64,000 bases of DNA from Carcharhinus amblyrhynchos (GCA_965287045.1 OZ336877.1:81406001-81470000); one strand, 5' to 3'; numbered from the stretch's first letter, positions 19,716 to 63,192 are shown. Notes: generated by a model not told the origin, from the letters alone. Translations and numbers: made by a program.

Positions 19716-19717
19716 AT

Positions 19718-20630
19718 GTCTATGTGGAGTTTGTACCTTCTCTCCGTGTCTGCATGGTGCCCTGGTTTCCTCCCACAGTCCAAAGATGTGCAGGTTAGTT
19801 AGATTGGCCATGCTAAATTGACTCTTGGTGTCAGGGCAACTAACCAGGGTAAATAGAACATAGAAAAACTACAGCACAAACAGGCCCTTCGGTCCACAAG
19901 TTGTGCCGAACATATCTCTACCTACTAGGCTTACCTATAACCCTCAATCCTGCTAAGTCCCATGTACTCATCCAGAAGTCTCTTAAAAGACCCTATTGAA
20001 TCTGCCTCCACCACCACCGAAGGCAGCCGATTCCATGCATCCACCACCCTCTGAGTGAAAAATTTATCCCTGACATCTTCTCTGTACCAACTCCCCAGCA
20101 CCCTAAACCTGTGTTCTCTTGTGACAGCCATTTCAGCCCTGGGAAAAAGCCTCTGAGAATCCACCTGATCAATACCTCTCAACATCTTATACACCTCTAT
20201 CAGGTCACCTCTCATCCTTTGCCTCTCCAAGGAGAAAAGACTGAGCTCTCTCAACCTATCCTCATAAGGCACACCACCCAATCCAGGCAACATCCTTGTA
20301 AGTCTCCTCTGCACCCTTTCAATGGCTTCCACATCCTTCCTGTAATGAGGCAACCAGAACTGAGCACTGTACTCCAAGTGGGGTCTGACCAGGGTCTTAT
20401 ACAGCTGCAGCATTATCTCCCAACTCCTAAACTCAGTTCCTCAATTGATGAAGGCCAGAACACCATACGTCTTCTTAACCACATCCTCTACCTACGAAAC
20501 ATATTTGAGAGTCCTGTGAACCCGGACCCCAAGATCCTTCAAATACATGGAGTTAGGGCCTGAGTGGGATTGTGGTCGGTGCAGACTCAGTGCGCCAAAT
20601 GGTCTCTTTCTGCACGCTAGGATTCTGTGA
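19718..20630 (+). mobile_element. HE1-type V-SINE split by a LINE insertion
   Basis: V-domain (GGTTTCCTCCCACAGTCCAAAGATGTGCAGG) at 19718-19855 continues at 20541-20630; AAATA is duplicated at 19851 and 20541. Confidence 0.85.
19856..20540 (-). mobile_element. 5'-truncated CR1/HER1 LINE
   Basis: ORF 19931-20413 (160 aa) is the RT C-terminus; same subfamily as 49310-51011. Confidence 0.95.
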
Positions 20631-21009
20631 TTGGTGACCATATATTGATGTCTTAAATGGCTTCTTGAAAAAGCTACCAAAGCCTCCCATAGATTTATAA
20701 TTCTTCTTAAAGTAAAACAAAACATTTAACAGAAAGAGAGGGAACAATAGAGATCACTTCAGTTGTATCATTAAGATAGCTAACATTGATTTAAGGCATT
20801 CTGAACGTGCTGTAATCCCGTTTCCAACTGTTGGGGAGAGGGAATCATAAATTACTGCATTGATGTGCAGTTGGACCACCTTTCTTTATGTTGCACACCA
20901 AATTTAAGCACCCAGTTTGGGGTGGGGTGCAGGGGGGAGGAGGTGACTTTCTTGTAGATCACACTTAAACATAAATGTTGCATCTATCACAACCGGATGC
21001 TTCAAAGAC

Positions 21010-21924: not shown

Positions 21925-24900
21925 ATAGCCAATGAATAGGTGAACAACATCTTACCCCCAACCTCATGAATCTTTATCATGAGCATTAACTTTTTATGTG
22001 GCACCTTACTGAATGCTCTTTTGAAATCCAAATATAGTGGATCCATTGGTTCCCTTTTTAATCATCCTCAAAAAAAACTCCAGCTAAATTTGTTGTAAGC
22101 AACTTCTGTTTTGTAAACCTGTTGACTTTGCCTGATCATACTATGATTTTCTAAGTGCATTGTTAAATTCCCTGAACAGATTAGTACGTTTTCCTAATGG
22201 CTGACATAAAGTTACCTGGTCTCTGTTTTTTTTTCTCTCTCCTTTCTTGAATACTGCAGTTTTTTTCGCTAACTTCCATTAAGCTGGGGATCTTCCAGAA
22301 TTCAGGGGATTTCATAGAACATAGAACATTACAGCGCAGTACAGGCCCTTTGGCCCTGGATGTTGCACCGACCAGTGGAACCAATGTAATGACCTAAACT
22401 ATTCTAATGTTATCCATATGCCTATCCACTGACCATTTGAACGCCCTTAAAGTTGGCGAGTCCACAACTGCTGCAGGCACGGCATTCCACACCCTTACTA
22501 CCCTCTGAGTAAAGAACCTACCTCTGACATCCGTCCTATAACTACCACCCCTTAATTTAAAGCTATGTCCCCTCGTGTTAGCCATCACCATCCGAGGTAA
22601 AAGACCCTCACTGTCCACCCTATCCAATCCTTTGATCATCTTGTATGCCTCAATTAGGTCATTTCGTAACCTTCTCTCTAATGAAAATAACCTCAAGTCC
22701 CTCAGCCTTTCCTCATACAACCTTCCCACCATACCAGGCAACATCCTGGTAAACCTTCTCTGCACCCTTTCCAACGCCTCCACATCTTTCTTATAATGCG
22801 GCGATCAGAACTGTACGCAATACTCCAAGTGCGGCCGCGCCAGAGTTTTGTACAGTTGTAACGTGACCTCATGGCTCCGAAATTCAATCCCTCTACCAAT
22901 AAAAGCTAACACACTGTACGCCTTCTTAACAACCTTATCAACCTGGGTGCCAACTTTCAGGGAGCTATGCACATGTACCCCGAGATCTCTCTGCTCGTCA
23001 ACACTACTAAGAGTCCTTCCATTAGCCCTATATTCTGTACTCCTGTTACTCTTACCAAAGTGAATCACCTCACACTTTTCCATATTAAACTCCATTTGCC
23101 ACCTCTCGGCCCAGCTCTGCAGCTTATCTATGTCCCTCTGCAAACTGTAACATCCATCCTCACGGTCTACAACTCCTCCAACTTTGGTGTCATCAGCAAA
23201 TTTACTAACCCATCCTTCTACACCCTCATCTAGGTCATTTATAAAAATGACTAACAGCAGTGGCCCCAAAACAGATTCTTGACGAACGCCACTTATAACT
23301 GAACTCCAGGTTGAATATTTCCCATAACCACCGCCCTCTGTCTTCTATCAGCTAGCCAATTCCTGATCCAAACTGCTAAATCACCCTCAATCCCATGCAT
23401 CTGCATTTTCTGCAGTAGCCTACCATGGGGAACCTTATCAAACGCTTAGCTAAAATCCATATGTGCCACATCAACTGCCTTACCCTTATCCACCTCTTTG
23501 GTCACCTTTTCAAAAAACTCGATAAGGTTTGTGAGGCACGACCTACCCTTCACAAAACCATGTTGACTATCCCTAATCAATTTATTTCCCTCTAGGTCCT
23601 ATCCCTCTAAATCCTATCCCTTATAATTCTTTCCAAAACGTTGCCCACAACAGAAGTAAGGCTCACTGGTCTATAATTCCCAAGATGGTCTTTACTCCCC
23701 TTCTTGAACAAGGGGACAACATTTGCTATCCTCCAGTCTTCCAGCACTATACCTCTAGCCAATGACGACATGAAGATCAAAGCCAAAGGCTCTGCAATCT
23801 CCTCCCTAGCCTCCCAGAGAATCCTAGAGTAAATCTCATCCGGCCCAGTGGACTTATCTATTTTCATACTTGTAAGAATTGCTAACACCTCCTCCTTATG
23901 TACCTCAATCCCGTCTAGTCTACTACCTGGTATCGCAGTATTCTCCTCGACTACACTGACTTTGTCCTGCGTGAATACTGACAAAAAATACTCATTCAAT
24001 GCCTCTCCTATCTCTTCAGGCTCCATGCACAACTTCCCACTGCTGTCTGTGACTGGCCCTAATCTTGCCCTAACCAATCTTTTATTCTTGACATACCTGT
24101 AGAAAGCTTTAGGATTTTCCTTGATCCTATCCGCCAGAGTCTTCTCATGTCCTCTTCTAAACTCTCTCTTTAGCTCCTTCCTGGCTAATTTATAACTCTC
24201 CAGTGCCCTAACTGAGCCTTCACGTCTCATCTTTACATAAGCCTCCTTCTTCCTCTTCACCAGAGATTCAACTTCCTTAGTACACCACGGTTCCCTCGCT
24301 CAACCACTTCCTCCCTGCCTGACAGGTACATATTTATCAAGGACTTGCAGTAGCTGCTCCTTGAATAAGCTCCACATTTCAGATGTTCCCAGCCCCTGCA
24401 ATTTCCTACTCCACCCTATGTATCCTAAATCTCGCCTAATAGCCTCATAATTACCTTTCCCCCAGCTATAACTTCCGCCCTTCAGTATATGCCTATCCCT
24501 TTCCATCACTAAGGTAAACGTAACTGAATTGTGGTCACTATCACCAAGTGCTCACCTACCTCCAAGTCCAACACGTGCTCTGGTTCATTACCCAGTACCA
24601 AATCCAATGTAGCCTCACCTCTTGTTGGCCTATCTACATACTGTGTCACGAAACCTTCCTGCACACATTGGACAAAAACTGACCCCTCTAACGTGCTTGA
24701 ACTATAGCTTTTCCAATCGATATTTGTAAAGTTAAAGTCCCCCGTAACAACTACCCTGTTACTTTTGCACCTATCCAGGATCATCTTTGCAATCCTTTCC
24801 TCTACATCTCTGGAACTTTTTGGAGGCCTATAGAAAACTCCCAACAGTGTGATCTCTCCTTTCCTGTTTCTAATCTCAGCGCATACTACCTCAATAGACA

Positions 24901-25730
24901 GGTCCACATCAAACATCCTTTCTGCCACTGTAATACTGTCCTTGACTAACAATGCCACGCTTTCCTCTCTTCTACCACCTTCTGTGCTCTGACTGAAACA
25001 TCTGAACCCCGGAACCTGCAACAACCATTCCTGTCCCTGCTCTATCCATGTCTCTGAAATGGCCACAACGTTGAAGTCCCAGGCACCAATTTAGGCTGCA
25101 AATTCGTCCACCTTATTGCGTATGCTCCTCTCTTTAAAGTATACGCACTTCGAACCACCCTCCCGCCTGCCAATACACTGCTGTGACCTAGAAACCTTAT
25201 CCATGACCTCCCTATTCTCATCCTCCTGTACATTGGAGCTACAATTCAGGTTCCCATATCCCCTCTGAATCAGTTTAAACTTCCCCCGAATAGCATTGGC
25301 AAACTCCCCCCCCCCCCCCCCCCCCCCCCCCCCAAGATATTAGTACCCCTCTGGTTCAGGTGCAGACCATCCCTCTTGTAGAGGTCCCATCTACCCCAGA
25401 ATGAGTCCCAATTGTCCAAGTATCTGAACCCTTCCCTCCTGCACCATCCCTTTAGCCACGAGTTCAAATGTTCTCTCTCTCTAATTAGGATTTTGGGAAA
25501 TCAGAACCAGTGCATCCACCAGCTCTATGGCTACCCCATTCGGAACTCTAGGATGTAAGCCGTCAACTCCTGAGGGGTTATGAACTTTTAGTCTCTTAAA
25601 TTTGTACAATAATTTTACCCTCATATCAATTATCTCATACTCCTTGCTTTCATTAGCTCCTTGGTCAACTTCTATTTCAGCTATGCAATTTATCCTCTAC
25701 TATAAAGACCAAACAGATATTTTGTACTTA
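21925..25730 (-). mobile_element. Old CR1 LINE hosting the younger insertion 22313-25481
   Basis: Degenerate RT sequence at 21925-22312 resumes at 25482-25730. Confidence 0.65.
22313..25481 (-). mobile_element. CR1/HER1 LINE, ~3.2 kb: end of ORF1 esterase, then APE endonuclease and RT, frameshifted
   Basis: ORFs 25270-25467 (WDLYKRDGLHLN, SGNH block V), 24509-25066 (ISETW, YRPP, GDFN, TLDLV), 23607-24260, 22805-23269 (FADD) and 22394-22783; CATAGAA tail repeats. Confidence 0.95.
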
Positions 25731-28671: not shown

Positions 28672-29471
28672 AGGGGTGACATGGTGGCACAATGGTCAGC
28701 ACTGCTGCCTCACAGCTCCAAGGACTTAGAACAAAGAACAACCCAGCACGGGAAACAGGCCCTTCGGCCCAATGAGCCCGCGCCGCCACATCACCCTACA
28801 CCTATTCTACCCTGCATGTCTACGAATGGAACCCCTAACTTAGCCAGATTCAGGGGAGAATAGTGTCAATTTGGTAAAACCAATCAGTCTAAGAGCACAT
28901 CTTTGGGGTGTGGGAGGAAACCGGAGCGCCCGGAGGAAACCCACGCAACCACAGGGAGAATGCGCAAACTCCCACAGACACAGGCCATGTATCTGCACAG
29001 CTAGCAGTGCTAGTCACTGAGCTGTTGCGGCGCCCGTCTACCGGTCCAGGATCAAGCACACACACCGACACGAAGTACTAGGCCACTCCCGGAACTTCCA
29101 AGAGCAGCCCACGCATGACCCACCGTGTACATGCCCCTCGTTTGACACGAGGTGGACCTCCTCCTGCGGAATAAAAAGACAAAAACGTTAATCTTACAAG
29201 CCTGCTTGGGTTCAATTCCAGCCTAAGGTGACTGTGTGGAGTTTGTGCATTGTCCCCGTGTGTGCACGGGATTCCTCCTGGTGCTCTGCTTTCCTCCCGC
29301 AGTCTAAAGCTGTATGGGTTAGGTTGATTGGCCATGTTAAATTGCTCCTTAGTGTCAGGGCCTCTATCAGGGTAGATATGTGGGGTACTGGGATAGGACC
29401 TGAGTGGGCTTGTTGTTGGTGTAGGCTTGATGGGCCAAATGGCCTCCTTATGCACTGTAGGGATTCTATGG
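28672..29471 (+). mobile_element. HE1-type V-SINE split by the insertion 28728-29204
   Basis: Head GGTGGCACAATGGTCAGCACTGCTGCCTCACAG at 28672-28727 resumes at 29205 with the B-box, V-domain and GGGATTCTATG tail. Confidence 0.9.
28728..29204 (-). mobile_element. 5'-truncated copy of the extended LINE 3' UTR (structured domain, V-SINE-like segment, CR1 tail)
   Basis: Collinear homology with ~48383-48953; GTTCTTT tail repeats; CTT duplicated at 28725-28727 and 29205-29207. Confidence 0.85.
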
Positions 29472-37587: not shown

Positions 37588-40350
37588 GGGAACAGAATAT
37601 CCAGGGGTATCAGGTGTTTAGGAAGGATAGATGGGAGGAAAAAGGGGGTGGGGTAGCTCTGTTTAATTAAGGATAATATCAGAATGGTAGTAAGAGAAGA
37701 TATAGGCTCCAAAGAGCAAAACGTGGAATCGTTGTGGGTGAAGATAAGGAATAGTAAGGGGAGGAAGACGCTGGTGGGTGTGGTCTATAGACCCCCCAAA
37801 TAATAACTTTGAGGTGGGGCGGGCTATAAACAAACAAATAATTGATGCGTGCAGAAACAGAACAGCAATAATTATGGGGGATTTTAATCTGTATATTGAT
37901 TGAATGACCCAAGTCGGACACGGTGGGCTTGAGGAAGAGTTCTTGGAATGCTGTCAGGATAGTTTCCTTGAACAGTATGTATCGGAACCTATGCAGGAGC
38001 GAGCTACCTTAGATCTGGTACTGTGTGACGAGGCAGGTAGAATTAGGGATCTTCTAGTGAGGGATCCTCTTGGGACGAGTGATCATAGTATGGTTGAATT
38101 TCTGATGCAGATGGAGGATGAGAAAGTAGGGTCCCAAACCCGTGTCCTCTGTTTGAACAGAGGGGAGTATGATAGGATGAGAGCGGAATTGGAGAATGTA
38201 GATTGGGGCCGCAGATTGGTTGGTAGGACAGCTGAGGAACAGTGGAGGATTTTTAAGGAGATCTTTTTCAGTACTCAGCAGATATATATTCCGATGGTAA
38301 AGAAGGACCGTAGGAGAAGGGATAACCAGCCATGGTTATCGAAGGAAATAAAGGAGAGTATTGAATTAAAAGCTGATGCGTTCAGAGTGGCTAAAAATAG
38401 TGGGCGATTAGAAGATTGGGAAAGATTTAAAAAACGACAAAGAATGACTAAGAAGGTGATAAAGAAAGGAAAGATAGAGTATGAAGCTAAACTAGCTCTA
38501 AATATAAAAAATGACAGTAAAAGTTTTTACAAATATATAAAGAAGAGACTGGCTAGAGTGAAGGTTGCACCCTTGGAGGACTAGAGGGGGGATTTAGCGG
38601 TGGGCGATGAGGAAGTGGCTGAGGCTTTAAATAAGTTTTTTGTGCCGGTCTTCACGGAGGAGGACACAAATAGTTTGCCGGATATTAAAGATAGAAGGAT
38701 GGTAGGAGATGAGGTCCTTAATGCGATCACTGTCACTAGAGAGGTAGTGCTTGATAGACTAACAGGACTGAAGGTAGACAAGTCCCCAGGACCGGATGGA
38801 ATGCGTCCCAGGGTTCTGAAAGACATGGCGGGGTGATAGCGGATGCCTTGGTAATTATTTATCAAAATTCGCTGGACTCCGGGGAAGTGCCGGAAGATTG
38901 GAAAATGGCTAATGTTATGCCGCTGTTCAAAAAAGGCAGCAGACAAAAGGCAGGGAATTATAGGCCGGTTAGTTTAACGTCTGTAGTTGGAAAAATGCTA
39001 GAATCCGTCATCAAAGAAGAAATAGTGAGGCACCTAGAAAAGAACGGTTTGATCAAGCAGACGCAGCATGGATTCGTTATGGGGAAGTCGTGTTTAACGA
39101 ATTTACTGGATTTCTGAGGATGTGACTAGTGTGGTAGACAGAGGGGAACAGGTGGATGTGGTGTTTTTAGAGTTCCAGAAGGCGTTTGATAAGGTGCCTC
39201 ACAAAAGGTTGCTGCAAAAGGTTAGGATGCACGGAGTTGGGGGTAAGGTGTTAGCGTGGATAGAGGATTGGTTGTCTAATGGGAAGCAGAGAGTTAGAAT
39301 CAATGGGTGCTATTCTGGTTGGTGACTAGTGGAGTGCCACAGAGATCAGTGCTGGCGCCTCAACTGTTTACCATTTACATAGATGATCTGGAGGAGGGGG
39401 CTGAGTGTAGGGTAACAAAATTTGCTGATGACACAAAGATGAGTGGAAAAGCGAATTGCATGGAAGGCGCGGAAAGTCTGCAGAGAGATCTGGATAGGCT
39501 GAGTGAATGGGTGAGGACCTGGCAGATGGAGTATAACGTTAGCAAATGTGAGGTTATCCACTTTGGCAGAAATAATAGAAGGAGGGATTATTATTTAAGA
39601 GGCGAAAAGCTGCAGCATGCTGCAGAGGGACCTGGGGGTCCTTGTGCATGAGTCGCAAAAACCCAGTCTGCAGGTGCAGCAGGTGATCAAGAAGGCTAAT
39701 GAAATGTTACCCCTTTATAGCGAGGGGGATAGAATATAAAAGTAGGGAGGTCTTGCTGCAACTGTACAGGGTACTGGTGAGGTCGCAACTGGAGTACTGT
39801 GTGCAGTTTTGGTCACCGCATTTGCAGAAGGTTATATTGGCCTTGAAGGGAGTGCAAAGAAGGTTCACTAGGCTGATATCGGAGATGAGGTGGTTAGCCT
39901 ATGAGGAGGGATTGAATAGACTGGGTCTGTACTCGGAGTTTAGAAGGCTGAGGAGGGATCTTATAGAGACATATAAGATAATGAAGGGGATAGATAAAGT
40001 AGAGGTAGAGAGATTCTTCCCGCTTAGAAAGGATAGCAGAACTAGAGGGCACAGCCTCAAAATACGGGGGTAGAGGGGGCAGTTTAGATCGGAGTTGAGG
40101 AGGAACTTCTTCACTCAAAGGGTGGTGAGTCTCTGGAATTCTCTGCCCATTGAAGTGGTGGAGGCTACCTCGCTGAATATATTTAAGTCACGGGTAGATA
40201 GGTTTCTGATAGACAAGGGAATTAAGGATTATGGGGAGAAAGTGGGAAAGTGGAACTGATCTACTTCAGATCAGCCATGATCTCGCTGAATGGCGGGGCA
40301 GGCTCGAAGGGCTAAATGGCCTACTCCTGCTCCTATTTCTTATGTTCTTA
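37588..40350 (+). mobile_element. CR1 LINE, ~2.8 kb of ORF2 (endonuclease and RT) with stops and frameshifts
   Basis: ORFs 37904-38584, 38833-39117 (NYRPVSLTS, QHGF), 39122-39325 (KAFDKVPH), 39307-39651 (FADD) and 39699-40073; TTCTTATG tail. Confidence 0.95.
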
Positions 40351-40727: not shown

Positions 40728-41047
40728 AGAATCATAGAAACCCTACAGTGCAGGAAGAGACCATTTGGCCCATTGAGTCTGCACTGACCATGATCCCACC
40801 CAGGCCCTACCCCCATATGCCTACATATTTACCTGCTAATCCCTTTAACCTACGCATCTCAGGATACTGAGGGGCAATTTTGGCATGGCCAATCAACCTA
40901 ACCCGCACATCTTTGGACTGTGGGAGGAAACCCATGCAGACTCGAGAATGTGCAAACTCCACACAGATGGTGACCCAAAGTGGGAATCAAACCCAGGTCC
41001 CTGCAGCTGTGAAGCAGCAGTGCTAACCACTATGCTACCATGCCGCC
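40728..41047 (-). mobile_element. HE1-type V-SINE
   Basis: tRNA head, V-domain and CR1-type tail on the minus strand. Confidence 0.9.
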
Positions 41048-42815: not shown

Positions 42816-45800
42816 TAAGAACATAAGAAATAGGAGCAGGAGTGGGCCATCTAGCCCTTCGAGCCTGCCCCGCCATTCAGTAAGATCATGGCTGATCTGT
42901 CGTGGCTCAGTTCCACATTCCCGCCCTCTCCCCATAACCCTTAATCCCCTCTCTTATCAAAAACCCATCAACCCGCGTCTTAAAAATATTTAGCGAAGTA
43001 GCCTCCACCACTTCAACGGGCAGAGAATTCCAGAGATTCACCACCCTTTGAGTGAAGAAGTTCCTCCTCAACTCCGTTCTAAACCGCCCCCCCTTTATCT
43101 TGAGGCTGTGCCCCCAAGTCCTACTATCCTTTCTGAGCGGGAAGAGTCTCTCCACCTCTATCCTATCCATCCCATTCATCATCTTATACGTCTCAATGAG
43201 ATCTCCCCTCATTCTTCTAAACTCCAACGAGTATAAGCCCAGTTTATTCAGCCTCTCCTCATTGCTCAACCCCCTCAACTCCGGCATCAGCCTAGTAAAC
43301 CTCCTGTGCACTCCCTCCAAGGCCAAAATATCCTTGCGTAAGTACGGCGCCCAAAACTGCACACAATACTCCAGCTGCGGCCTCACCAATGCCCTATACA
43401 ACCGCAGCAAGACCTCCCTACTTTTATATTCAATCCCCCTCGCTATGAAGGCCAGCATCCCATTAGCCTTCCTGACCACCTGCTGCACCTGCAAGCTGGG
43501 TTTTTGCGACTCATACACAAGGACCCCTAGGTCCCTCTGCACTGTCGCCTGCTGCAGTTTTTCGCCACGTAAGTAATAATCCTTCCTACCATTATTCCTA
43601 CCAAAGTGGACCACCTCGCACTTGCCAACATTAAATTCCATTTGCCAGTTCCTGGCCCATTCGCCCAGCCTATCTAGATCCGTCTGTAGACTCTCCACAC
43701 CCTCCGCACAATTTGCCGTTCCACCAATCTTGGTGTCATCAGCAAATTTCGACACCATACACTCAGTTCCCTCCTCCAGATCATCTATATAAATGGTAAA
43801 TAGCTGAGGCCCCAGCACCGACCCCTGAGGCACTCCACTAGTCACCAACCGCCAATCCGAATAGCACCCATTTACCCCCACTCTCTGCCTCCTATTTGAC
43901 AACCAATCCTCTATCCACGCTAACACCCTACCCCCAACTCCATGTCCCCTGACCTTCTGCAATAACCTCTTGTGAGGTACCTTGTCAAACGCCTTCTGAA
44001 AATCAAGAAAGACCACATCCACCAGCTCTCCTCTATCCACCGCCCTAGACACATCCTCATAGAACTCCAGTAAATTTGTCAGACACGACTTCCCTTTAAC
44101 GAAACCGTGCTGCGTCTGCTCTATCAAGCAATTCCCCTCAAGATGCCTCGCTATTTCCTCCTTGATGACGGATTCTAACATTTTACCTACAACAGACGTT
44201 AAACTAACCGGCCTATAATTCCCTGCCTTTTGCCTGGCACCCTTCTTAAACAACGGCGTAAGATTAGCCGTTTTCCAATCTTCCGGCACTTCCCCGGAAT
44301 CCAGCGACGTCTGGAAAATAACCACCAAGGCATCCACTATCACCTCCGCCATTTCTTTCAGAACCCTCGGATGCATTCCATCCGGTCCTGGCGACTTGTC
44401 CACTATCAGCCCCTCCAGTCTGTCGAGCACCGCCTCTCTAGTAACAGTAATGTCATTAAGGCCCTCCAGTCCTACCATCTTTCCATCTCTAACACCCGGC
44501 AAATTATTCATGTCTTCCTCCGTGAAGACCGAAACAAAAAAGTTATTCAAGACCTCAGCCATTTCCCCATCCCCTACCACTAAGTCCCCCTTCTCATCCT
44601 CTAAGGGACCAACGTTCACCCTAGCCAGCCTCTTCCTTTTTATATATTTATAAAAACTCTTGCTATCCTTTTTTATATTAAGCACTAGCCCAGCTTCATA
44701 GTTTCTCCTACCCTTCTTTGTCAACTTCTTTGTCAATCTTTGTTGACATTTAAACCTCTCTCAATCCTCTTCTTGCCCACTACTCTTAGCTACTCTAAAC
44801 GCCTCCGCTCTTAATTTAACACTTTCCTTCACCTCCTTCGTTATCCATGGCTTATTACCTCTCCTCCTAGGGTCCTTTTTAACCATCGGAATAAATTTCT
44901 GCTGAGCACCAAGAAAGATCTCCTTAAAGATCCTCCACTGCTCCTCAGCAGACCTACCTTCCAACGCGCTCCCCCAGTCCACATTCGCCAATTCTTCTCT
45001 CATCCTACCGTGCTCCCCTCTGTTCAAACAAAGGACGCATGTCCGGGAACCCACTTTCTCCTCCTCCATCTGCACCAGAAACTCCACCATACAATGATCA
45101 TTCTCCCCAAGAGGATCCTTCACCACAAGGTCCCTAATTCTACCCGCCTCATTACATAACACCAGATCCAAGATAGCTTGCTCCCTCGTCGGCTCCAACA
45201 CACACTGTTCAAGGAAACTATCCCGGCAGCATTCCAAGAACAACTCCTCGAGCCCACCGCGTCCAACATGGGTCGACCAATCAATATGTAGATTGAAATC
45301 CCCCATAACTACGGCCGTCCCATTCCTGCACGCCACACTTATTTGCGCATTAACAGCCCGCCCCACCTCCAGATCATTATTCGGGGGCCTATAGATGACA
45401 CCCACCAGCGTCTTCCTCCCTTTGCTGTTCCCAATCTCTACCCACAACGATTCCACTTTCTGCTCCTTGGCTCCAGTATCATCCCTTGCTCCCACCCTGA
45501 TGCTATCCTTAATCAGCAGAGCTACGCACCCCCCCCCCCCACTTTTTCCTCCCGCCTATCCTTCCTAAACACTTGATACCCCTGGACATTCAGCTTCCAG
45601 TCCCTGTCACCTTGCAGCCACGTCTCTGTAATGGCCACCAGATCATATCCATTTGTGCCGAACTGCGCCACCAGCTCATCCACTTTATTCCGAATGCTTC
45701 ATGCATTCAGATAAAGCGCCTTCATCCCAGCCTTCACCTGGACCCTATTTGCCGTAATGCCACCAACCATACTCACGCCCCCTACTCCCTCTATTATTGG

Positions 45801-45881: not shown

Positions 45882-47462
45882 AAAGGTTCAGAGGAAGATT
45901 GGGCTCATCGGTGAGAGTGAAACAACAGATGATCAGATGATCTCGATCCCAATGATGAAGCCCATGAGCTCATTTCAATAATTATTTTGCCAAGAGCCAC
46001 ATTAGCCGCAGAAATATGCTCATCATGAGTACAGCTACATACTGTTGAATGCTAAAATCCCATTCAAGTTTTCCCAAGTCCACTGTTGGAATGCTGAAGC
46101 ATGTGGGGTGAGATGTGGAGCCATACGTGTGATTATCCCTTCACTCATATCACTTCCTTGAATTGCCACAGTCAACCGCTTACTCTTAGTAACAGACAAT
46201 ATGAGTGATAGAATGGATTATCTTGAGTTATATTTCAACAAGATCCTTCCTGATAAAAGCTGGATTAACCAGGCCTACTAATAGCATTCCAACTTAATCC
46301 CTAACCGCAAAGAAGGATGACACAGCACTATCTCTTATTTTGATGCTGAGGCACAGCCAAGCAGATTGGACGGAGACTCAGAAGCATGTGTTTGCTGAGA
46401 GTTATAAGTAAAGGGGAGGACAGCCACAAATACCCTCAGGGCCCCACTGTAAGTACTGTTGATCTTGGGAGAAGGCAGTCAGTTGGTTTACTTTATCAAA
46501 TGTTTCCTCTACAGAATCATTACTACAAGCACAAAGGGGAAGTTGAAATTAGAAATTAGAAATTCTTTAAATTAGAGATGAGGGTGAAATCATGCTTATC
46601 ATGCCTTTCACTGCTGATGCCACTAGACTTTGAATAATCAATGGAAGGGCATGTATCTAGTATGGGGCTGGTGGATGCAATCATCATTGCAAGCACACCT
46701 CCAGTGCACACCTGTCTCATGTAACTGGAAATTATAGTGCTCATTTATAGGTTATGAAGGGAAATTGTATAGGCTTGCTCCTATCTTGCCACACTCCAAT
46801 TTTTATGTTGACCTCTATTCAAATTCACTGAATGTTTCAAAAATAGCTTTTATACTAATTTGCATTTGGCTGCAAAATATATCTAGTCCTATCTGTTTCT
46901 ATTGTGGAGGATGTAGGTATTGGCAATGCCTTCGGCACGGTGAGGAAGGAGTTTGGAAGTTGCTGTGCAAATTTGGCTGTAATGTTAAAATTGTTGATGT
47001 AACCAGGCAACTTCACAAGGCATGATGGGTACAATAATGGAAACACATCTGAAACATTTCCTGCAGAATATTTAAGACTAAATACTGATTCTGAGCCTTT
47101 CCTGGCTCTTTTGCACAGCTACACTATATGATGCCATGACAGATTTGCATAAAGCAATCGATGTACAATACTGAATAAACATTTTCAATCTTAGAAGATT
47201 AAATGACAAAAGTAAGATCAGATAGCTCATCGTTGTACAGTTTTGTGAACAGGCACTAACCCATCCATTCTGAAGCTGCTCTGCAGCATATCATTGATTA
47301 ATTTGCTGGATCAGCCCAGGTTGACCATCAGCTTAACATAAATATCCAGATTGCGCCACAGCTTGCAGTAAACTGAAAATTGTGGTTAGACATACAAGTT
47401 AACTGCAATTGCTAGTTTTACGTATCTAGGCATTGTATTCGGTTGGGTTGCAGCTTTGAACT

Positions 47463-48953
47463 TGCTGATAGTGATGAACAGTGACAGACAATACAGCAGG
47501 ATATAGATAGGCTGGTAAATTGGGCGGTGAAACGGCAGATGAAATTTAATCCAGATAAATGCAAGGTAATGCATTTTGGAAGAAATAATGTAGGGGGGAG
47601 TTATACAATAAATGGTAGGACCATTAAGAGTACAGAAACACAGAGAGACCTAGGTGTGCAAGTTCACAAGTCCTTGAAGGTGGCAGCACAGGTGGAGAAG
47701 GTGGTAAAGAAGGCATATGGTATGCTTGCCTTTATAGGAAGGGGTATTGAGTATAAAAGCTGGAGTCTAATGTTGCAGTTGTATAGAACGTTGGTTAGAC
47801 CACATTTGGAGTTCTGCATCCAGTTCTGGTTGCTGCACTACCGGGAGGACATGGAGGCCTTGGAGAGAGTGCAGAGGAGGTTTACCAGGATGCTGCCTGG
47901 CATGGAGGGTCTCAGCTATGAGGAGAGATTGGACAAATTGGGGTTGTTCTCCCTGGAAAGACAGAGAACAAGGGAAGACCTAATAGAGGTGTTTAAGATT
48001 ATAGGGTATAGACAGAGTGAACAGTGGGAAGCTTTTTCCCAGGTTGGATGCGAAAACCACAAGGGGTCATGGGCTTAAGGTGAGAGGGGTGAGGTATAAT
48101 TCATATGTTAGAGGGAGATTTTTCACACACAGGGTTGTGGGGGCCTGGAATGTACTGCCAAGTAGGGTGGTAGAGGCAGGCATGTTAGAATTGTTTAAGG
48201 CTTACCTAGACAGGCACGCAAGCACGCTAGAGATGGAGGGATGAAAAAGAATGTTCTAGTTGAGGATCAAGAGCCTCAGGACGTTCCTGGGAATTAATAG
48301 ATTCCTGTGGGCCGTCCAACATATTTTATGGCTCACCTGTCTCTTATGCTGGAGCTACTGGGGATCTTCCTTAATGTCTGTATAGGCTGTTGTACGTTTA
48401 TTGATGTCTTTTTTTTTTACATCCACAGGCGATTCGGTCCGCTTTGTTGGCCAACAAGGGGCATACACGCGGTGGGTCGTGCAAGGGCTGCTCTTGGATG
48501 TTGCTTCGAGAGTTGCCTTGCGCTTCACGTCGTTAGTGTATGCTTAAACTGGACCAACTGACGGGCGACACGACAGCTCAGTGACTATCACTGTTTACTG
48601 TGCAGTTACAGGGACCCGGGTTGGATCCGGCTTGGGTCAGTATCTGTGGGAGCTTGCACATTCTCCCTGTGCTTGCGTGGATTTTCTCCGGGTGCTCCGG
48701 TTTCCTCCAACACCCCAAAAATGTGCTTTTAGGCTGATTGGTGTTAATAAATTGTCCCTAAATTGGACCCCTCTTAATCTGGCGCACATATAATTCTCTA
48801 AATTTGCACCCCTTTATTGTGGAGTCCACAAGATGTAGTCAAGAGTCATAGGTAGAAGAAGGATTGGAATGAGGCACTCACTGAGTGTTAAAATGGGTGG
48901 CGCCGGCTTGTAGGGCCAAAGGGCCTGTTTCCTGTGCTGTGTTGTTCTTTGTT
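47463..48953 (+). mobile_element. 5'-truncated CR1 LINE with a ~700-nt composite 3' UTR
   Basis: RT C-terminal ORFs 47527-48078 and 48017-48244, then hairpins, a V-SINE-like segment and the CR1 tail; TSD CTTTGAACT at 47454-47462 and 48954-48962. Confidence 0.9.
48436..48555 (+). other. Putative structured RNA domain (three-way junction) in the LINE 3' UTR
   Basis: GGTCC/GGACC closing stem, CTTTGTT/AACAAGG hairpin and an ~83-nt hairpin GCATACAC...GTGTATGC; the same pairings occur in 29043-29158 (-). Confidence 0.65.
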
Positions 48954-49139
48954 CTTTGAACTAGAACATCAACAATCACATCAGGAAGACCATTGCAGTA
49001 TATGTGTTTAAAACAACTGAGGCCTAAAGCTATGAAAGTATATTGCAGTTTCATTTATGCAGCTGTGGAATTTGAAGTCTTTGTTTGCATATGAATGTCG
49101 CAAACCCACTCTATCTCCTAGAATATGAGTGGTGAATAG

Positions 49140-52179: not shown

Positions 52180-53198
52180 TTAGTTGAGTTACATTTGATG
52201 GCACTTTGACTTCTGCAATAATAGATTGTGGGTTTGAAGCTCTACACCAGGACTTGAGCATATCATCAAGGCTGAAGTGTCAATGTGTTTTTGAAGGAGT
52301 GCTGCGCTGTCAGAGTTGTCATTGGTTGAATGAAATGTTAAAACAGAGACATGTTACCTGCTCAGATGGACGTACATTCCACACTAAACGATTTGAATAA
52401 GAGAGTTCTAATATGCAGGCTTGATGGACTGAAGGGCCTGTTCCTGTGCAGTCTTGTTCTTCGTTCTTACCAACATCTATGGCTCAACATGTTGAATGTT
52501 GTATGTTCAGTGGGTTCAGAAGAGGTTCTGAACCTTGTATGGTTAAACGTAAGTGTTTATTGATAACACATAATCATGTGCATATCTACATTGAATCCTA
52601 TAGTGCCGAAGGAGGCCATTCAGCCCATCGAGTCTACACTGACACAATCCCATCCAGGCCCTATCCCCATACGTTTACCCTAAGCATGGCCAATCCAACT
52701 AATCCTAATCTGCACGTCTTTGGACTGTAGGAGGAAACAGGAGCACCTGGAGGAAACCCACACAGACACGCGGAAAACATGCAAACTTCTCACGGACAGT
52801 GACCCAAGTCTCTGTTGAATCGAACCTAGGCTTCTGGCACTGTGAGGCAGCAGTGCTAACCACTGAGCCGCTATGTCACCAGGGTTATATACAGGGTTTA
52901 ATCAAAGCTATGAGCTAACTCCATGTTTGCTTCTTCAAAGGGTGTCTGTTCAGTCACAACTGACCCAAGTCTCCCATCGTGTCATTACACTGTTTCCCAG
53001 TCCCACACTAACCCTTGCTATGCCAGATACTCTTGCACCACTGGACCAACACCACCAGAAATTTATCTCATAACTGAGTGTGATGTTTTGTTTTGGCAAC
53101 CATGACGGCACTTCAAAATATCCCTTTGCTGTGAAGTGCTTTGGATGACCTGAGGATGTGAAGTACTCTATATAAATGGATATTCAATTCTTCTTTTA
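52180..53198 (+). mobile_element. DeuSINE pieces (52180-52410 and 53095-53198) separated by younger inserts
   Basis: GGAGTGCTGCGCTGTCAGAG...GATGGACGTA and tail CACTTCAAAA...GTGCTTTGGATGACCTGAGG...TATATAAATG. Confidence 0.55.
52589..52880 (-). mobile_element. HE1-type V-SINE
   Basis: Head, V-domain and tail on the minus strand. Confidence 0.9.
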
Positions 53199-54534: not shown

Positions 54535-54861
54535 CATAGAATCAAAGAATCCTTACAGTGCCGAAGGAGGCATTCAGCCCATCAGGTCTGCACTGACAAC
54601 AATCTCACCTAGGCCCTATTCCCAGATATTTAATCTGCTAATTCCTCTAAACTGCTCATCCCGGAAACTAAATGGCAATTTAGCATGGCCAGTGTACCTA
54701 ACTTTCACATCTTTGAACTGTGGGAGGAAATTGGAACACCCAGAGGAAACCAGTGCTGACATGGGGAAAATGTGCAAGCTCGACAAAGAGTCATCCAAGG
54801 CCAGAATTAAACCCAGGTCCCTGGAGCTGTGAGACAGCAGTGCTAACCACTGTGCCACCCG
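54535..54861 (-). mobile_element. HE1-type V-SINE
   Basis: Head, V-domain and CR1-type tail. Confidence 0.9.
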
Positions 54862-55921
54862 GTCTATCTTTATCAAGACACTATTTCAGCCGGATTTGCA
54901 CTGGAACTTGAACTCCATTGCTCTAGCCTTGGGTACACTCCAGCACTGGCAAGGTGAGAAGTCTGCCTCACTTCAGGTGCCCCTTCTCCTCAGTGAGCAA
55001 AGGAGAGGCAAATTGGACACCTAAAGGGAGGAGGAGCACCAGCCAGAAACCTGGGGACATTGACCCAGGATTCTTGAAGGGTAGCCTGCTGCTTCACTTC
55101 TACCAATGACCCCATCGGCTCCTGTGGGTCAGGACGAGGAGGGTGCAGTTGCGCTGGTGCAGGAGACCTTTAGCAGGTTATGGCCTTCCAGACCTCGGCG
55201 TCCCAGAAAATACCCACTAAAGTAATCTCAGACAGCAGGGTGTAGCTGTCTACAGACCCTGTCTCTCCCCACCCCCGAACCAACCCCTGAATTATCTCTC
55301 ATCTTGTTCCTCTGTTCCACATAATCTCACACAATTTCACCACAATCAATTGTCTTTGATTTCACATTACCAACATGAACGAATTTCTATGTGAAAACAA
55401 TGTCTTCACGATAAACACACAACTCTTGCATCTGAGACACATATTAGATAATCTCGTGAGAAATATTCAGACAGTCATTAATCTGATGATGTTGCACTGA
55501 TGACTCTTTGTGTCGTAAGTTGAAACCTTTTATTCCAGATGCACTCTGCATGGCCTTTATCTTATGATTATGAGGTTTTGGTAAAAGTATTATTCATCAT
55601 GGAGCATCATAGTCCTTTATGCCTCCCTGCTGTGTTGTTTTATCACTAGCTTTAAGGCTGAATGTTTCTCCTTTATTATTGTCCACTCTCCCCATGCAAG
55701 TTGCTGAGCGATGGAGGTTAGTACCACTCAATGACAGTTGAAGTGTCTGCTAGACAGGAATGAGAGTGTGATATCGGAATTGTGTGTTCTAATGAAGCTG
55801 TCCAGTTACCTGTGAGGATGTTACTTTGCTTCTGAATGGCTGCCTAGTGATCATTAACAGAAATGGAATTCATGACAATGCATTCAGTGACTAAGATTTA
55901 ATGGGAAGGATTGGCCTATGA

Positions 55922-56203
55922 GTGGCACGTTGGCACAGTGGTTAGTACTGCTACCTCACAGCACCAGGGACCCAGATTCAATTCCCAGATTGGGCGACTG
56001 TGCGGACTCTGCACATTCTCCCAGCATCTGCATGGGTTTCTTCCCACAGTCTGAAAGCCATGCTGGTTAGGTGAATTGTTCATACTAAATACTCCCTCAG
56101 TGCAACTGAACAGGCACCAGAGTGTGGCGACAAGGGAATTTTCACAGTAACTTCATTGCAATGTTAATGCACACCTACTTGTGACACTAATAAATAAACT
56201 TTA
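55922..56203 (+). mobile_element. V-SINE with HE1-like head and Rex1-like tail
   Basis: TGGCACAGTGG A-box and V-domain, ending TTTTCACAGTAAC...CTTGTGACACTAATAAATAAACTTT. Confidence 0.85.
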
Positions 56204-57980
56204 AATTTTGCGAGATGGACAGTGTTGAAGTTTGCAGTGGTATGAAACCCATGGTCTGGAACGTCATCTGATTGCTCATCAGTATCTGTGAAGGGACTAA
56301 GTTATCATTGGCTGCAGTGTCGAGACTGGGTCACAGTCATCTCTCCCAGATGCCAAAACAATGTAGCAAGAAACTACAAAGGGTCATGAATGAAAAACTA
56401 AACATATTTTAAGAAAAGGGAACTGATCTCACATGCTGAGACACCTCCCTGACTTTTTCTTCTGACTTGATTTCCAAACTGTGTATTGGATGGTAAAGTC
56501 AAAAATGGTGCTGCTGATATTCATTTGGAAGTCCAACCTCCCCCAGAATCCACTAAATCCTGCGCCCCCCCCCTCCCTCCTCACTGATTCTTAGTTTGCC
56601 TTCCTCAAATAACTATCCCACCTCCTGGTTACCCTTAAATCTATCATTATCCATGTTTATAGTTCCGTCTCCATCACACCACCCCCCCCCATGACTTTTC
56701 TGCTTCTGACTTGCAGGTTGCAGATGCCTCCTTTGATCATGACTGTGCCACTTGCCTCATGGTATTGTGGCTCCTACCCTCAGGATCAACTTCCTTGGGT
56801 GACTGATCATGCCCTACATATCATATTGTGTATGACCATCACTGCCCAGAGAGACCTTCCCTGGGACTGAGACATGTTTGCCATGCAGTGTCCTCTAACA
56901 TGATCTGCACAGCTCCAGGACAGTCTCTTCAATATGCCCCAAACAACATGGCCTCAGTCCAGTAACATCTCTTCAATCTGCCACCAACAGCATGGTCTCA
57001 GCCCCAGAACAGTATCTACGCCTTCTTCGACAGTCTTATAACACTTGCCCCAGGATAGTTTTTCTCTCCCATGAGCTATATCTCCCTATCACCACCAGTT
57101 CTGCATCCATCTCCACCCGCTCTCACTCCTCCCCTGCCCCACCCCACCCCAACCCCTAGTATTTCCATCTATTAGCCTTGGCACAGCTTCTGATACAAGC
57201 ACTTCATCTCGCAGCACCATTCTTAAAGGTAGGTGAAAGCAGCATCTATGTATATCAAAGTTATTGATAAACTGAAGCTCACCGGATGCATGTCATTTGT
57301 ATATAGTCAAAAAACAGACCATTCTAATTGTCTGCTGACAGGACCTCAATTTGGAGGGTGAACATAATTCTGGTGAGTTGGCCTTTTAATGAACATTTAT
57401 GAGGAGCAAATGAATGTAAGTGTTGGAAACTTGGTCTGCCTTTAACCCAACCCATTAAAGTCAACAAGAGAACAAAATTCCAAACTAATTTTCTATTAGC
57501 AGGAAAACTTGACTTTTTCCAACATGCCAAATTATGTGGCCCAGCCCACCATTATTCCACCACTCGTGGGAGCGGAAAACTCCACCTTGTATCTCCCTCC
57601 TTATATTTTGTATAGGGCTGCATTAATTTTATTCAGTGTCTTTACTGTTCTGTCACAGGTCAGGAGAGTCAGAAGAGTCAGACAGTAGAAGCAGCTATGA
57701 CTTCCGAGTGTAAACGCGCATCTCGTGAAGAAACATTATGCTAAACATAATATCAATAACAGTTGAATTAATATTTTTATGTGAAGTGTTTTTGTTATTT
57801 CAAATGATGCCTTTGTTCCAGTAGAGTACGTAGGAGTTTTGGAGTCTGAATGAACACATTTGTTATTCAATTAGTGTGATTTTAATGCACATCTGAATTG
57901 TATTTCCATGTTATACAGAAGTTACTGAACTGTGACAGAGAAATTTGAGGTGAAGTTTTATATGATTCTTTTTGTAACAA

Positions 57981-58264
57981 AAGTTAAAGTTTTATTTATT
58001 AGTCACAAGTAAGGCTTACATTAACACTGTAATGAAGTTCCTGTGAAATTCCCCTGGTTGCCACATTCTGGCACCTGTTTGGGTTAATGCACCAAACCAG
58101 CACATCTTTGAGAACGTGGGAGGAAACCTGAGCACCTGGAGGAAACCCACACCGACATAAGGAGAATGTGCAAACTCCACACTGACAGTGACTGAAGCCA
58201 GGAATTGAACCTGGGACCCTGGTGCTGTGAGGCAGCAGTGCTAACCACTGTGCCATCATGCCAC
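57981..58264 (-). mobile_element. V-SINE with Rex1-like tail
   Basis: Reverse-complement homologue of 55922-56203; possible AACAAAA TSD. Confidence 0.85.
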
Positions 58265-58794
58265 TCAACAAAATTGCATCAATAAACAGAGCTTATTTAA
58301 TTGAAGATACTGCAGCTCGGACTGTAAATTACAAATATTCAATATTCATTGGGTGAAATCTGAAAATAGATAAAGGTTTGAATAACCAAAAATGGCAGGA
58401 GTTTAAATTTCCCGCCAAAACATCCTCTGGGCGTCTGTGTTTTAACCTCAGAATTTGCATTCATCGCAGCCAAGATACTAATTTCTTTGGAATATGTTGT
58501 GTGTTACTTTACCATGTTAAAGTGTCAAGTCTAAGCTTAAACACAATTCTTGGGATTCTGAATGAATGTTGAAGAAGAACATATGGAACGACAAAATTGA
58601 CAGATGGGAAAAGGTCTGGTCTACTAAGAGCGTCCCATATAGTCAAGCACTGGCTAAGCACCATGATCTTTAATGGTCCCATTCACTAACAAAATTATAA
58701 CTTTCCAGAAGAAATGTTTCTGAAAATCAATTTAGGAATAGCAGCATTCAGGGAAATCCTCCTTCAAACACTATGATCAAGCGAAAACATTGGT

Positions 58795-60995: not shown

Positions 60996-61412
60996 TTTAA
61001 TGCTCTCATCGAAACCTTTTCCAGGAACTTCACGTAATGACATGGTATAATAGGTGAAATGTTGATGGGTTTTATGTAATTAGATGATTGTAATCTTTGT
61101 TACTTTCTGACTTTGTTACTATTCTGATTATTCCAATTACTTCTGAACAATCTGGTATTTTTATAACATTTCCAATGCATCAAGCTGAATTAGAGCTTGT
61201 GTCACAATGAGTTTGTACTACTTTTTCAATCAAAAATATGGAACAATAATTTCCCATCTCCTCCTGCTGTATGAGTCCTTTAGATAGCTCAAATCAATTT
61301 GTGATAATCACAAACCCACAGAGCAATGCTTCTTAAAGTTCAGGGATTTATTTCGACATTCAGTGCTTGGGGGTAGTTGGTACAGGAGTGGAAAAATGCA
61401 TATGCAGCAGAA

Positions 61413-61695
61413 AAAGTTAAAGTTTATTTAATAGTCTCAAGTAGGCTTACATTCACACAGGTACTGAGAAAATCCTCTAATCGCCACACACTGAAGGCTG
61501 TTTAGGCACCCTGGGAGAGAATTTAGCATGGCCAATTCAGCTTACCTGCATGTTTTTGGACTGTGGGAAGAAACAGGAGCACCCAGAGAAAACCCACGTA
61601 GACATGGGGAGAATGTGAAAACTCCACACAGTGATCCAGGCAGGGGTTGCTGGTGCTTTGAGGCAGCAGTGCTAATCACTGTGCCACCATGACAC
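61413..61695 (-). mobile_element. V-SINE with Rex1-like tail
   Basis: AAAGTTTATT...CAAGTAGGCTTACATT tail, V-domain and head. Confidence 0.8.
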
Positions 61696-62055
61696 TCTTT
61701 TGAAGTTGGAGTTAAAAATAAAATAATTGAGCAGAGTAGAGGAAGCTGCAGTTTGTATTTGGCACTTCCTATGTTTGGCGTTGGAATGCTTAGTGTAAAT
61801 ACGAGGTGTGAAAAAGTAGAAAATATTAAATCTGGGCATAGTTTTTTTTCTGTTTCCTAACTGCAAAAATTCACCAAAAATATACATTTTAAACGTACTC
61901 AAATTTTCACTTCCATTTAAGATAGAAATATTTAACATTACAGCGGTATGAGAGGCTTTCTTAGCTTTATAACATTAGAAATGTTCTATACATTTAAGTT
62001 GTTGTGATTGTTGAATTTTGTTATCCTATATCCATTGTGACAAAGAAATCTATCG

Positions 62056-63192
62056 ATGGCGTTGGGGGTAAGGTGTTAGCGTGGATAGAGGGTTGGCTGC
62101 CTAATAGGAGGCAGAGAGTTGGTATCAATGGGTGCTATTCTGATTGGCGGTTGGTAACTAGTGGAGTGCCGCAGGGATCGGTGCTGGGGCCTCAGCTATT
62201 TACCATTTATATAGATGATCTGGAGGAGGGGGCTGAGTGTAGGGTGACGAAATTTGCTGAGGACACAAAGATAAGTGGAAAAGCAAATTGTGCGGAGGGT
62301 GTGGAAAGTCTGCAGAGGGATCTAGATAGGCTGAGCGAGTGGGCGAGGACCTGGCAGATGGAGTACAATGTTAGCAAGTGTGAGGTTATCCACTTTGGCA
62401 GGAATAATAGTAGGAGGGATTACTATTTAAAGGGCGAAAAGCTGCAGCATGCTACGGTGCAGAGGGACCTGGGGGTCCTTGTGCATGAGTCGCAAAAACC
62501 CAGTCTGCAGGTGCAGCAGGTGATCAAGAAGGCGAATGGGATGCTGGCCTTTATAGCGAGGGGGATAGAATATAAAAGCAGGGAGGTCTTGCTGCAACTG
62601 TACTGGGCACTGGTGAGGCCGCAGCTGGAGTACAGTGTGCAGTTTTGGTCGCTGCACTTGTGTAAGGATATTTTGGCCTTGGAGGGAGTGCAGAGGAGGT
62701 TCACTAGGCTGATACCGGAGATGAGGGGGTTAGACTATGAAGAGAGACTAAATAGACTGGGTCTGTACTCGTTGGAGTTTAGAAGGATGAGGGGGGATCT
62801 TATAGAGACGTATAAGATAATGAAAGGGATGGATAGGATAGAGGTAGAGAGATTCTTCCTGCTCAGAAAGGACAACAGGACTAGAGGGCACAGCCTCAAG
62901 ATAAGGGGGGGGGGGGGGGTTGCAGTTTAGAACGGAGTTGAGGAGGAACTTCTTCACTCAAAGGGTGGTGAATCTGTGGAATTCTCTGCCCGTTGAAGTG
63001 GTGGAGGCTACCTCACTAAATATATTTAAGACATGGGTAGATAGGTTTTTGTAGGCAAGGCAATTAAGGGTTATGGGGAGAAAGCGGGAAAGTGGAACTG
63101 AGCCACTTCAGATCAGCCATGATGTTGTTGAATGGTGGGGCAGGCTCGAAGGGCTAGATGGCCTACTCCTGCTCCTACTTCTTATGTTCTTA
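62056..63192 (+). mobile_element. 5'-truncated CR1 LINE
   Basis: ORF 62004-62930 encodes RT, with FADD changed to FAED; same subfamily as 37588-40350 and 42816-45881. Confidence 0.95.

Follow-up and report, generated by a model that had tools for sequence, protein, structure and literature searches.

A CR1 LINE copy in the shark Carcharhinus amblyrhynchos ends in a long 3' UTR that contains a SINE, and this locus raises the question of whether the copy belongs to a LINE lineage that carries the SINE as part of its own transcript or is a single accidental joining of two RNAs. We address this question in a stretch of 64,000 nucleotides (OZ336877.1:81406001-81470000), referred to here as the window; all positions are counted from its first letter. 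The copy in question is referred to as the focal copy.

The window has a GC content of 34-49% in 2-kb bins and is dense in CR1 and SINE fragments. No convincing host Pfam domain was found in the 148 frames scanned, out of 439 non-repeat frames of at least 42 amino acids. We presume that its free SINEs are HE1; this name and HER1, that of the LINE, follow a table entry and not a sequence comparison. In two of the free SINEs (19717-20632 and 28672-29470), a CR1-type element was inserted later and divides the SINE in two. The free V-SINEs include some with an AT-rich tail unlike CR1 (55920-56210, 57978-58266 and 61412-61697) and others with a CR1-like stem-loop tail (40728-41044, 52590-52880 and 54538-54862), and these two tail types suggest two partner LINEs. 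Among the CR1 copies, the long one at 22313-25500 (minus strand) has an endonuclease frame at 24512-25090 and a weak GDSL esterase match at 25273-25500, and is probably near full length; a run of 28 C lies in its 5' part (25306-25333). Two 2.8-kb CR1 copies, at 37595-40350 (plus strand) and 42816-45591 (minus strand), are 81% identical and face each other 2.5 kb apart, with a third relative at 62058-63192.

The coding part of the focal copy (47463-48259, plus strand) is the 5'-truncated end of a CR1 ORF2. The fragment is similar to CR1 reverse transcriptase proteins: in a protein search, 239 of 327 candidates matched it at E <= 1e-20, the top ones at 79-82%. The closest named protein relative is from the bamboo shark (P0019), and another relative from outside the window (P0009) gives amino acid identities of 82% and 68%; at the nucleotide level, the fragment is 66-71% identical to the other CR1 copies of the window. 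A first-pass annotation of this DNA placed a reverse transcriptase at this position. CR1 ORF2 is indeed present, but only as the end of the reverse transcriptase region and the C-terminal part, and neither of its two frames matches any Pfam family. The copy has the features of CR1, namely the likeness of its ORF2, a 3' stem-loop, a short tandem-repeat tail without poly(A), a target-site duplication (TSD) and 5' truncation; the reverse transcriptase core was lost through this truncation, and the placement in CR1 is based on similarity. A tree was built of nine window copies. In that tree the focal branch is long (0.45), and no other ORF2 of the focal subfamily was found in the window. One window CR1 that matches the fragment has endonuclease and GDSL esterase-like frames upstream. 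The protein P0121, a eukaryotic gene model with PF10185, has CR1 ORF2 fragments as its first and last stretches and is likely a gene-prediction artefact.

Three lesions interrupt the fragment: a stop codon (47482-84), a frameshift (near 48003) and a TGA (48242-44). Since two outside relatives (P0009 and P0050) stop five codons past this TGA, at the position of the TAG at 48257-59, and the last residues of P0009 are similar to those encoded in the window, the TGA is probably premature and the TAG is probably the natural stop of ORF2. Thus, of the earlier description, the order of ORF2 followed by a long UTR stands, and the end of ORF2 at about 48244 probably does not.

Counted from the TAG, the focal UTR is about 696 nt long. 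By comparison, the UTR is 69-93 nt long in eight of the eight other CR1 3' ends that we measured, a set that does not comprise all CR1 fragments of the window. This agrees with the earlier remark that the other CR1 copies reach their tail within roughly 100 nt, and the excess of about 600-630 nt is close to the 650 extra nucleotides then estimated. The UTR can be divided into successive modules, all on the plus strand. The first is the proximal UTR (48260-48399, 140 nt), which contains a weak hairpin and has no other match within the window except that a second copy, described below, covers just its last ~14 nt. It shows no similarity to 12 native CR1 and SINE 3' ends (z <= 1.6), and for lack of this likeness a remnant of the native UTR 3' of the ORF2 stop was rejected. 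It is followed by a pyrimidine tract with T10 at 48409-18 and a CAG/G acceptor-like motif (together 48400-48429), a predicted three-way-junction RNA domain (48436-48555), a tRNA-type V-SINE head (48563-48640), a V domain (48641-48755), a variable 3' body (48756-48865) that contains a 28-nt internal duplication (48755-82 and 48795-822), and a CR1-type 3' end (48866-48955) that consists of a stem-loop and a 7-nt terminal repeat.

The whole unit is bracketed by a TSD of 9 bp, CTTTGAACT, at 47454-47462 and 48954-48962, in accordance with the first-pass annotation, which had described it as a perfect duplication around the reverse transcriptase and the UTR together. The left copy lies directly 5' of the ORF2 homology, which begins at 47462 in the alignment to another window CR1 and at 47461 and 47464 in the alignments to outside proteins. 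Only 20 of 5000 random 31-mers share at least 9 nt with the real right flank. Note, however, that the first five bases of the TSD also continue the tail repeat, so that the right side offers less independent information, with only four bases that do not depend on the tail. Such an overlap is the outcome expected when target priming proceeds through annealing of the tail. The same 9-mer is found at two further places in the window. We accept the TSD as genuine. There is also a perfect 11-nt inverted repeat between 48251-48261, spanning the inferred ORF2 stop, and 48959-48969, which comprises the end of the right TSD and flanking sequence. About 0.3 such pairs are expected per 1.65 kb; it is nevertheless unusual that the two arms mark the two ends of the UTR, and no inversion is seen.

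One could suppose that the structure was formed locally after insertion, by nesting of a SINE, deletion or gene conversion, or that the TSD is a chance match. Nested repeats are dense in the window and the tail repeat extends over five of the nine TSD bases, as this explanation would expect. However, the low chance frequency of the TSD, its coincidence with the ORF2 boundary, the absence of a free SINE of the composite type among the eight compared, and the occurrence in a second copy of the whole module order, with 22 derived columns in common, all speak against local formation, which we regard as very improbable.

The SINE part of the UTR begins at 48563 with the first base of the SINE. Its head and V domain align with six free SINEs of the window, the head with their 5' ends. 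The V domain is also identical to a frog V-SINE consensus (supplement of PMC6887750) at about 77 of 92 positions, by a count made by eye. The V-SINE origin proposed at first is thus upheld, while the term "V-SINE-derived segment" understates what is present, namely a SINE that begins at its 5' end and includes a tRNA-type head. Conversely, a LINE UTR of the focal kind might have been the source of the V domain of V-SINEs. There is a precedent in that LINEs have contributed the middle bodies of SINEs, as stated in the available text of PMC5786205 for 5' parts of RTE and Vingi elements. In the focal copy, however, the piece has a tRNA-type head, with its A and B boxes decayed, from the first base on, and the head and the V domain match frog and fish V-SINEs, which argues that the piece entered as a SINE; the reverse derivation is hardly conceivable. 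By eye, some positions in the captured V domain (48641-48735) are common to frog V-SINE consensuses and not to the local free SINEs, and the captured domain may come from an older V-SINE lineage.

The SINE does not appear to drive its own transcription. The boxes were scored against consensus sequences. On this scale, the A box has two mismatches, with the same two changes in both composite copies, and the B box has three mismatches in the focal copy and is deleted in the second copy. Of the six free SINEs, four have a perfect A box and four a B box with at most one mismatch. No tRNA gene is predicted in the SINE head by ARAGORN, as expected for a decayed one. The focal SINE differs from an active V-SINE or HE1 member in that its unit does not begin with intact A and B boxes and its head is internal. 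Given that the boxes are decayed or deleted and that runs of T precede the head, the composite is unlikely to stem from Pol III transcription. With such boxes, another promoter would be required, most simply that of the LINE.

The first-pass annotation also reported hairpins and a structured domain in the UTR. The fold of the 120 nt at 48436-48555 has a z score of -4.21 in the sense and -1.92 in the antisense direction, and the corresponding values in the second copy are -4.41 and -1.04; the proximal hairpin (48246-48390) is only weak (z -1.96). The structured domain is borne out as a predicted three-way junction, consisting of a closing helix, a short hairpin and a long rod, that folds alike in both copies. 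Among the 45 pairs of the two-copy consensus fold, which were chosen to fit, the changes are one-sided in 11 cases and two-sided in 2; when each copy is folded independently, 30 of the 47 and 45 pairs are shared (in one alignment). In an earlier count with wider windows, pairing is kept in 10 of the 18 and 13 of the 21 pairs that changed, as against 6.0 and 8.8 expected. A naive simulation of broken pairs gives P values of 0.02 and 0.003, but it is biased in that both copies descend from a better-paired ancestor. A conservative simulation starting from the best-paired mosaic gives P values of about 0.08 (energy) and 0.15 (two-sided changes), neither of which is significant. We therefore take the predicted hairpin fold to be real and claim no selection on it.

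Several known RNA classes were considered for this domain. A search of 4227 Rfam families yields two matches at E 7-8, neither of them inside 48436-48555, and a ribozyme or small RNA of a known type (ribozyme, SRP, Y, vault, snoRNA or miRNA) was rejected for want of an Rfam match in the hairpin. HDV-like and hammerhead motifs, compared by eye, do not fit. An antisense retrocopy with a poly(A) tail was also rejected: the antisense fold is far weaker and no convincing TSD is present. A window scan with a covariance model of the hairpin returns the two training copies and one antisense echo, and no further copy.

The UTR reaches a tail, as had been claimed, and the tail is of CR1 type by its best scores among the 12 ends compared, with a predicted stem-loop. 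The last 90 nt of the focal copy score 71 and 70 against CR1_49 and CR1_22, and 62 against the best SINE; the tail of the second copy scores 78 against the best CR1 end and 64 against the best SINE. These score margins are small, and a tree of 13 tails does not resolve a CR1 from a SINE origin of the composite tail.

A self-comparison of the window reveals a second copy of the composite UTR, 5'-truncated and on the minus strand (28728-29204). This copy lies inside a free V-SINE of the plus strand (about 28672-29470), with a 3-nt duplication, so the composite was active after that free SINE had been inserted. Its start corresponds to about 48386, and its modules follow the same order as in the focal copy: pyrimidine tract (22 of 32 columns identical), three-way-junction hairpin (90/115), SINE head (43/54), V domain (100/114), body (43/79 aligned columns, for 48756-48895) and tail (52/60). 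In a tree of 10 head and V sequences, the two composite copies form the only starred clade (support 100/100, stem 0.21, tips 0.09). They share 22 derived columns that are rare in free SINEs, the next best of the 45 pairs sharing nine. The two copies thus descend from a common composite, which for its 3' 570 nt represents a mobile lineage and no isolated event. A single 3' transduction, which had been named in advance as a case that would refute the proposal, is removed for the UTR itself by this second copy with its own site in the window. Moreover, the same A-box changes in both copies and their clade with 22 derived columns indicate that the composite existed as one unit for a long time and that its spread followed the decay of its Pol III promoter. 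A tail-only fragment at 52412-52469 (plus strand) has a similar terminal repeat and is identical at 44 of 59 positions to the focal copy and at 42 of 59 to the second copy; it is possibly a third copy, although its grouping has no tree support.

Between the two copies, the V domain is 88% identical and the adjoining body 54%. It is significantly better kept than the 3' body (P 3e-7), whose alignment is gappy, and not significantly better kept than the hairpin (P 0.08), the head (0.17) or the tail (0.82).

The longest frame of the UTR was also searched against 1.84 billion proteins, and this yields three matches. Two of them (P0123 and P0124) were dropped as cysteine-rich or compositional chance matches. 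The third, a spurious protein from a Logan contig (P0122), matches 48349-48504 (E 2e-6, 56%). At the base level, its residues 23-51, corresponding to the acceptor-like site together with the hairpin's first half, score 70 as against 16 for shuffled sequences; residues 1-22 alone (the 48349-59 end) and residues 52-116 score within the shuffles. By eye, the P0122 match had seemed to run on past the hairpin as far as the SINE; given the score of residues 52-116, this impression was rejected. The match ends at 48504, in the middle of the hairpin, and has neither a SINE part nor a link to ORF2. Judged by this similarity, P0122 represents part of the composite module in another contig.

The acceptor-like motif of the first-pass annotation corresponds to the tract and CAG/G at 48400-29, which recur in the second copy. 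Motifs of this kind occur 29 times in 128 kb (both strands of the window), and two of these are the two composite copies. The motif is kept in three of three instances (the focal copy, the second copy and P0122), which points to an RNA that transposed unspliced at this site. We therefore read the motif as a U-rich tract, presumably not a splice site that was used before insertion.

The junction between ORF2 and the UTR (48260-48385) is seen in one copy only. No protein that bridges ORF2 and the UTR occurs among the matches listed (120 of 239), nor in the two and three matches of further searches. A scan of bacterial and archaeal genomes for the junction pattern gives no locus, and phage records give no match; shark DNA is not expected in either, and these results carry no weight. 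A scan of the bacterial and archaeal genomes for ORF2 confirms one of 510 stretches, at 46% identity and with no DNA similarity to the window.

The single junction bears on the central claim of the first-pass annotation, that a LINE lineage carries a SINE-bearing composite. The repeated movement of the UTR, the V-SINE origin of its SINE part, the dead Pol III promoter and the CR1-type tail are supported, and the junction is found in one copy. Our preferred reading, with a probability of about 0.6, is that a CR1 subfamily absorbed a V-SINE into a 3' UTR of about 700 nt and that the focal copy is one 5'-truncated member of it. The principal competitor is that the composite is a non-autonomous family of its own, produced by read-through or splicing from host or LINE promoters, and that the focal copy is a one-off template-switch chimera of this composite with a CR1 RNA. 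The junction seen once, the second copy without ORF2 and the acceptor-like motif retained in both copies all speak for such a family, and template switching by the CR1 machinery is proposed in the available text of PMC5729268. Yet the focal ORF2 runs to its inferred natural stop with no native short UTR or tail after it, so that a one-off switch must land in the interval of about 125 nt that separates this stop from the point where the second copy begins. In addition, the second copy starts in mid-sequence like a truncation, rather than at a shared 5' end, the Pol III boxes are dead, and the pyrimidine tract would be lost from spliced RNAs. We consider a chimera rather unlikely.

Alternatively, the link between ORF2 and the UTR may be a family trait of elements that are themselves non-autonomous, with an internally deleted or dead ORF2, and that are moved in trans by a CR1 whose tail is related to theirs. 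The only copy with ORF2 has two stops and a frameshift, and CR1 derivatives with internal deletions exist according to the accessible part of PMC6740152. Against this, three lesions in 797 nt would fit ordinary decay after insertion, and ORF2 is still 68-82% identical to P0009. Mobilisation of a defective family in trans thus seems quite unlikely.

Under the preferred reading of an absorbed SINE, we infer that ORF2 and the UTR are linked at the level of the family, that the family is autonomous, and that capture would have followed one of two routes. In the ancestral source, a V-SINE (head, V domain and some of the body), together with sequence upstream of it, would have been placed 3' of the ORF2 stop and 5' of a CR1-type tail. 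Either the SINE was inserted into the UTR and its own tail was lost, or transcription read through into a SINE further downstream, and the tail of that SINE was taken over. The Pol III promoter of the SINE could then decay after capture because the unit would be transcribed from the 5' end of the LINE. The ORF2 protein would bind the terminal stem-loop while the tail repeat anneals to the nicked target, and reverse transcription would pass through the UTR, usually stopping early. Early stops would produce UTR-only copies that resemble an odd SINE, such as that at 28728-29204, and later stops would produce copies with ORF2, such as the focal one. Recognition of the terminal stem-loop by the LINE protein would mean that sequence upstream of the tail is copied as cargo.

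Joining parts of different RNAs inside one TSD is a feature of composite elements such as SVA and LAVA. It is also found in template-switch chimeras such as U6-L1 and PittSINE, the latter in the available text of PMC5729268. The focal element differs from both in that the LINE coding part is at the 5' side, the SINE is internal, and the composite 3' part recurs. With elasmobranch CR1 LINEs (HER1 and its relatives), it shares the ORF2 C-terminus, 5' truncation, a short TSD, a terminal stem-loop and a microsatellite tail; the difference is the UTR, which is about 696 nt long instead of 69-93 nt and holds a SINE and a folded domain. With the V-SINE superfamily (HE1 of sharks and rays, Ac1 and anuran V-SINEs), it shares the tRNA-type head from the first base and the V domain. 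It differs from these in the decayed A and B boxes, in at least 175 nt of extra sequence 5' of the head, and in a tail of the CR1_49/CR1_22 type instead of the local free-SINE tail, the tail being closer to CR1 by score with the tree unresolved.

Several published systems are related. The accessible portion of PMC3747384 tabulates HE1 and HER1 as a SINE-LINE pair, and exchange of tails and modules between SINEs and LINEs is described as standard in that of PMC5499810. Stringent LINE proteins recognise the terminal stem-loop, as the available text of PMC4176376 states to be shown for zebrafish L2. The capture and spread of a V-SINE by another element is known for MER6/MER6A, where the carrier, as far as PMC6887750 is accessible, is a Mariner-derived MITE (a DNA transposon) and the SINE head was lost, in contrast to the LINE RNA carrier and the retained head of the focal copy. 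In Ingi-3_AC, a LINE is suggested to have gained a Ceph-SINE-like sequence through recombination, but in the available part of PMC5786205 this concerns 68 nt of the 5' UTR in another clade and is given only as a possibility, whereas in the focal copy it is the 3' UTR. In the accessible text of a 2026 survey of vertebrate CR1-group elements (PMC13343379), UTRs are mentioned once and SINEs only in the references. Its supplement contains many elasmobranch CR1 consensuses, of which the first 400 bases are visible, and the focal family may be among them. Our literature search, whose coverage did not extend to the original HE1/HER1 and V-SINE papers, found no description of a CR1-V-SINE composite architecture.

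If the junction is unique, what remains is modest: a new composite non-autonomous element and one chimera. A bolder proposal, which we put forward as doubtful, is that an autonomous shark CR1 lineage domesticated the V-SINE and the three-way-junction RNA as working parts of its transcript. The V domain is the best-kept internal part although the Pol III promoter is dead, and under this proposal this would mean that the V domain acts at the RNA level, in retrotransposition or RNA stability; the lineage would then offer a direct assay for why the conserved domains of SINEs persist. More generally, if the V domain or the hairpin affects the mobility of the LINE, the function of SINE conserved domains would be testable by deletions. 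For genome annotation, truncated copies of such a family would be masked as SINEs or fragmented, and the family would be hidden. Sequence usually flows from the tail of a LINE to a SINE, and a LINE lineage with a whole, disabled SINE would represent the opposite flow. Such a lineage would provide a route by which SINE conserved domains persist and change partners.
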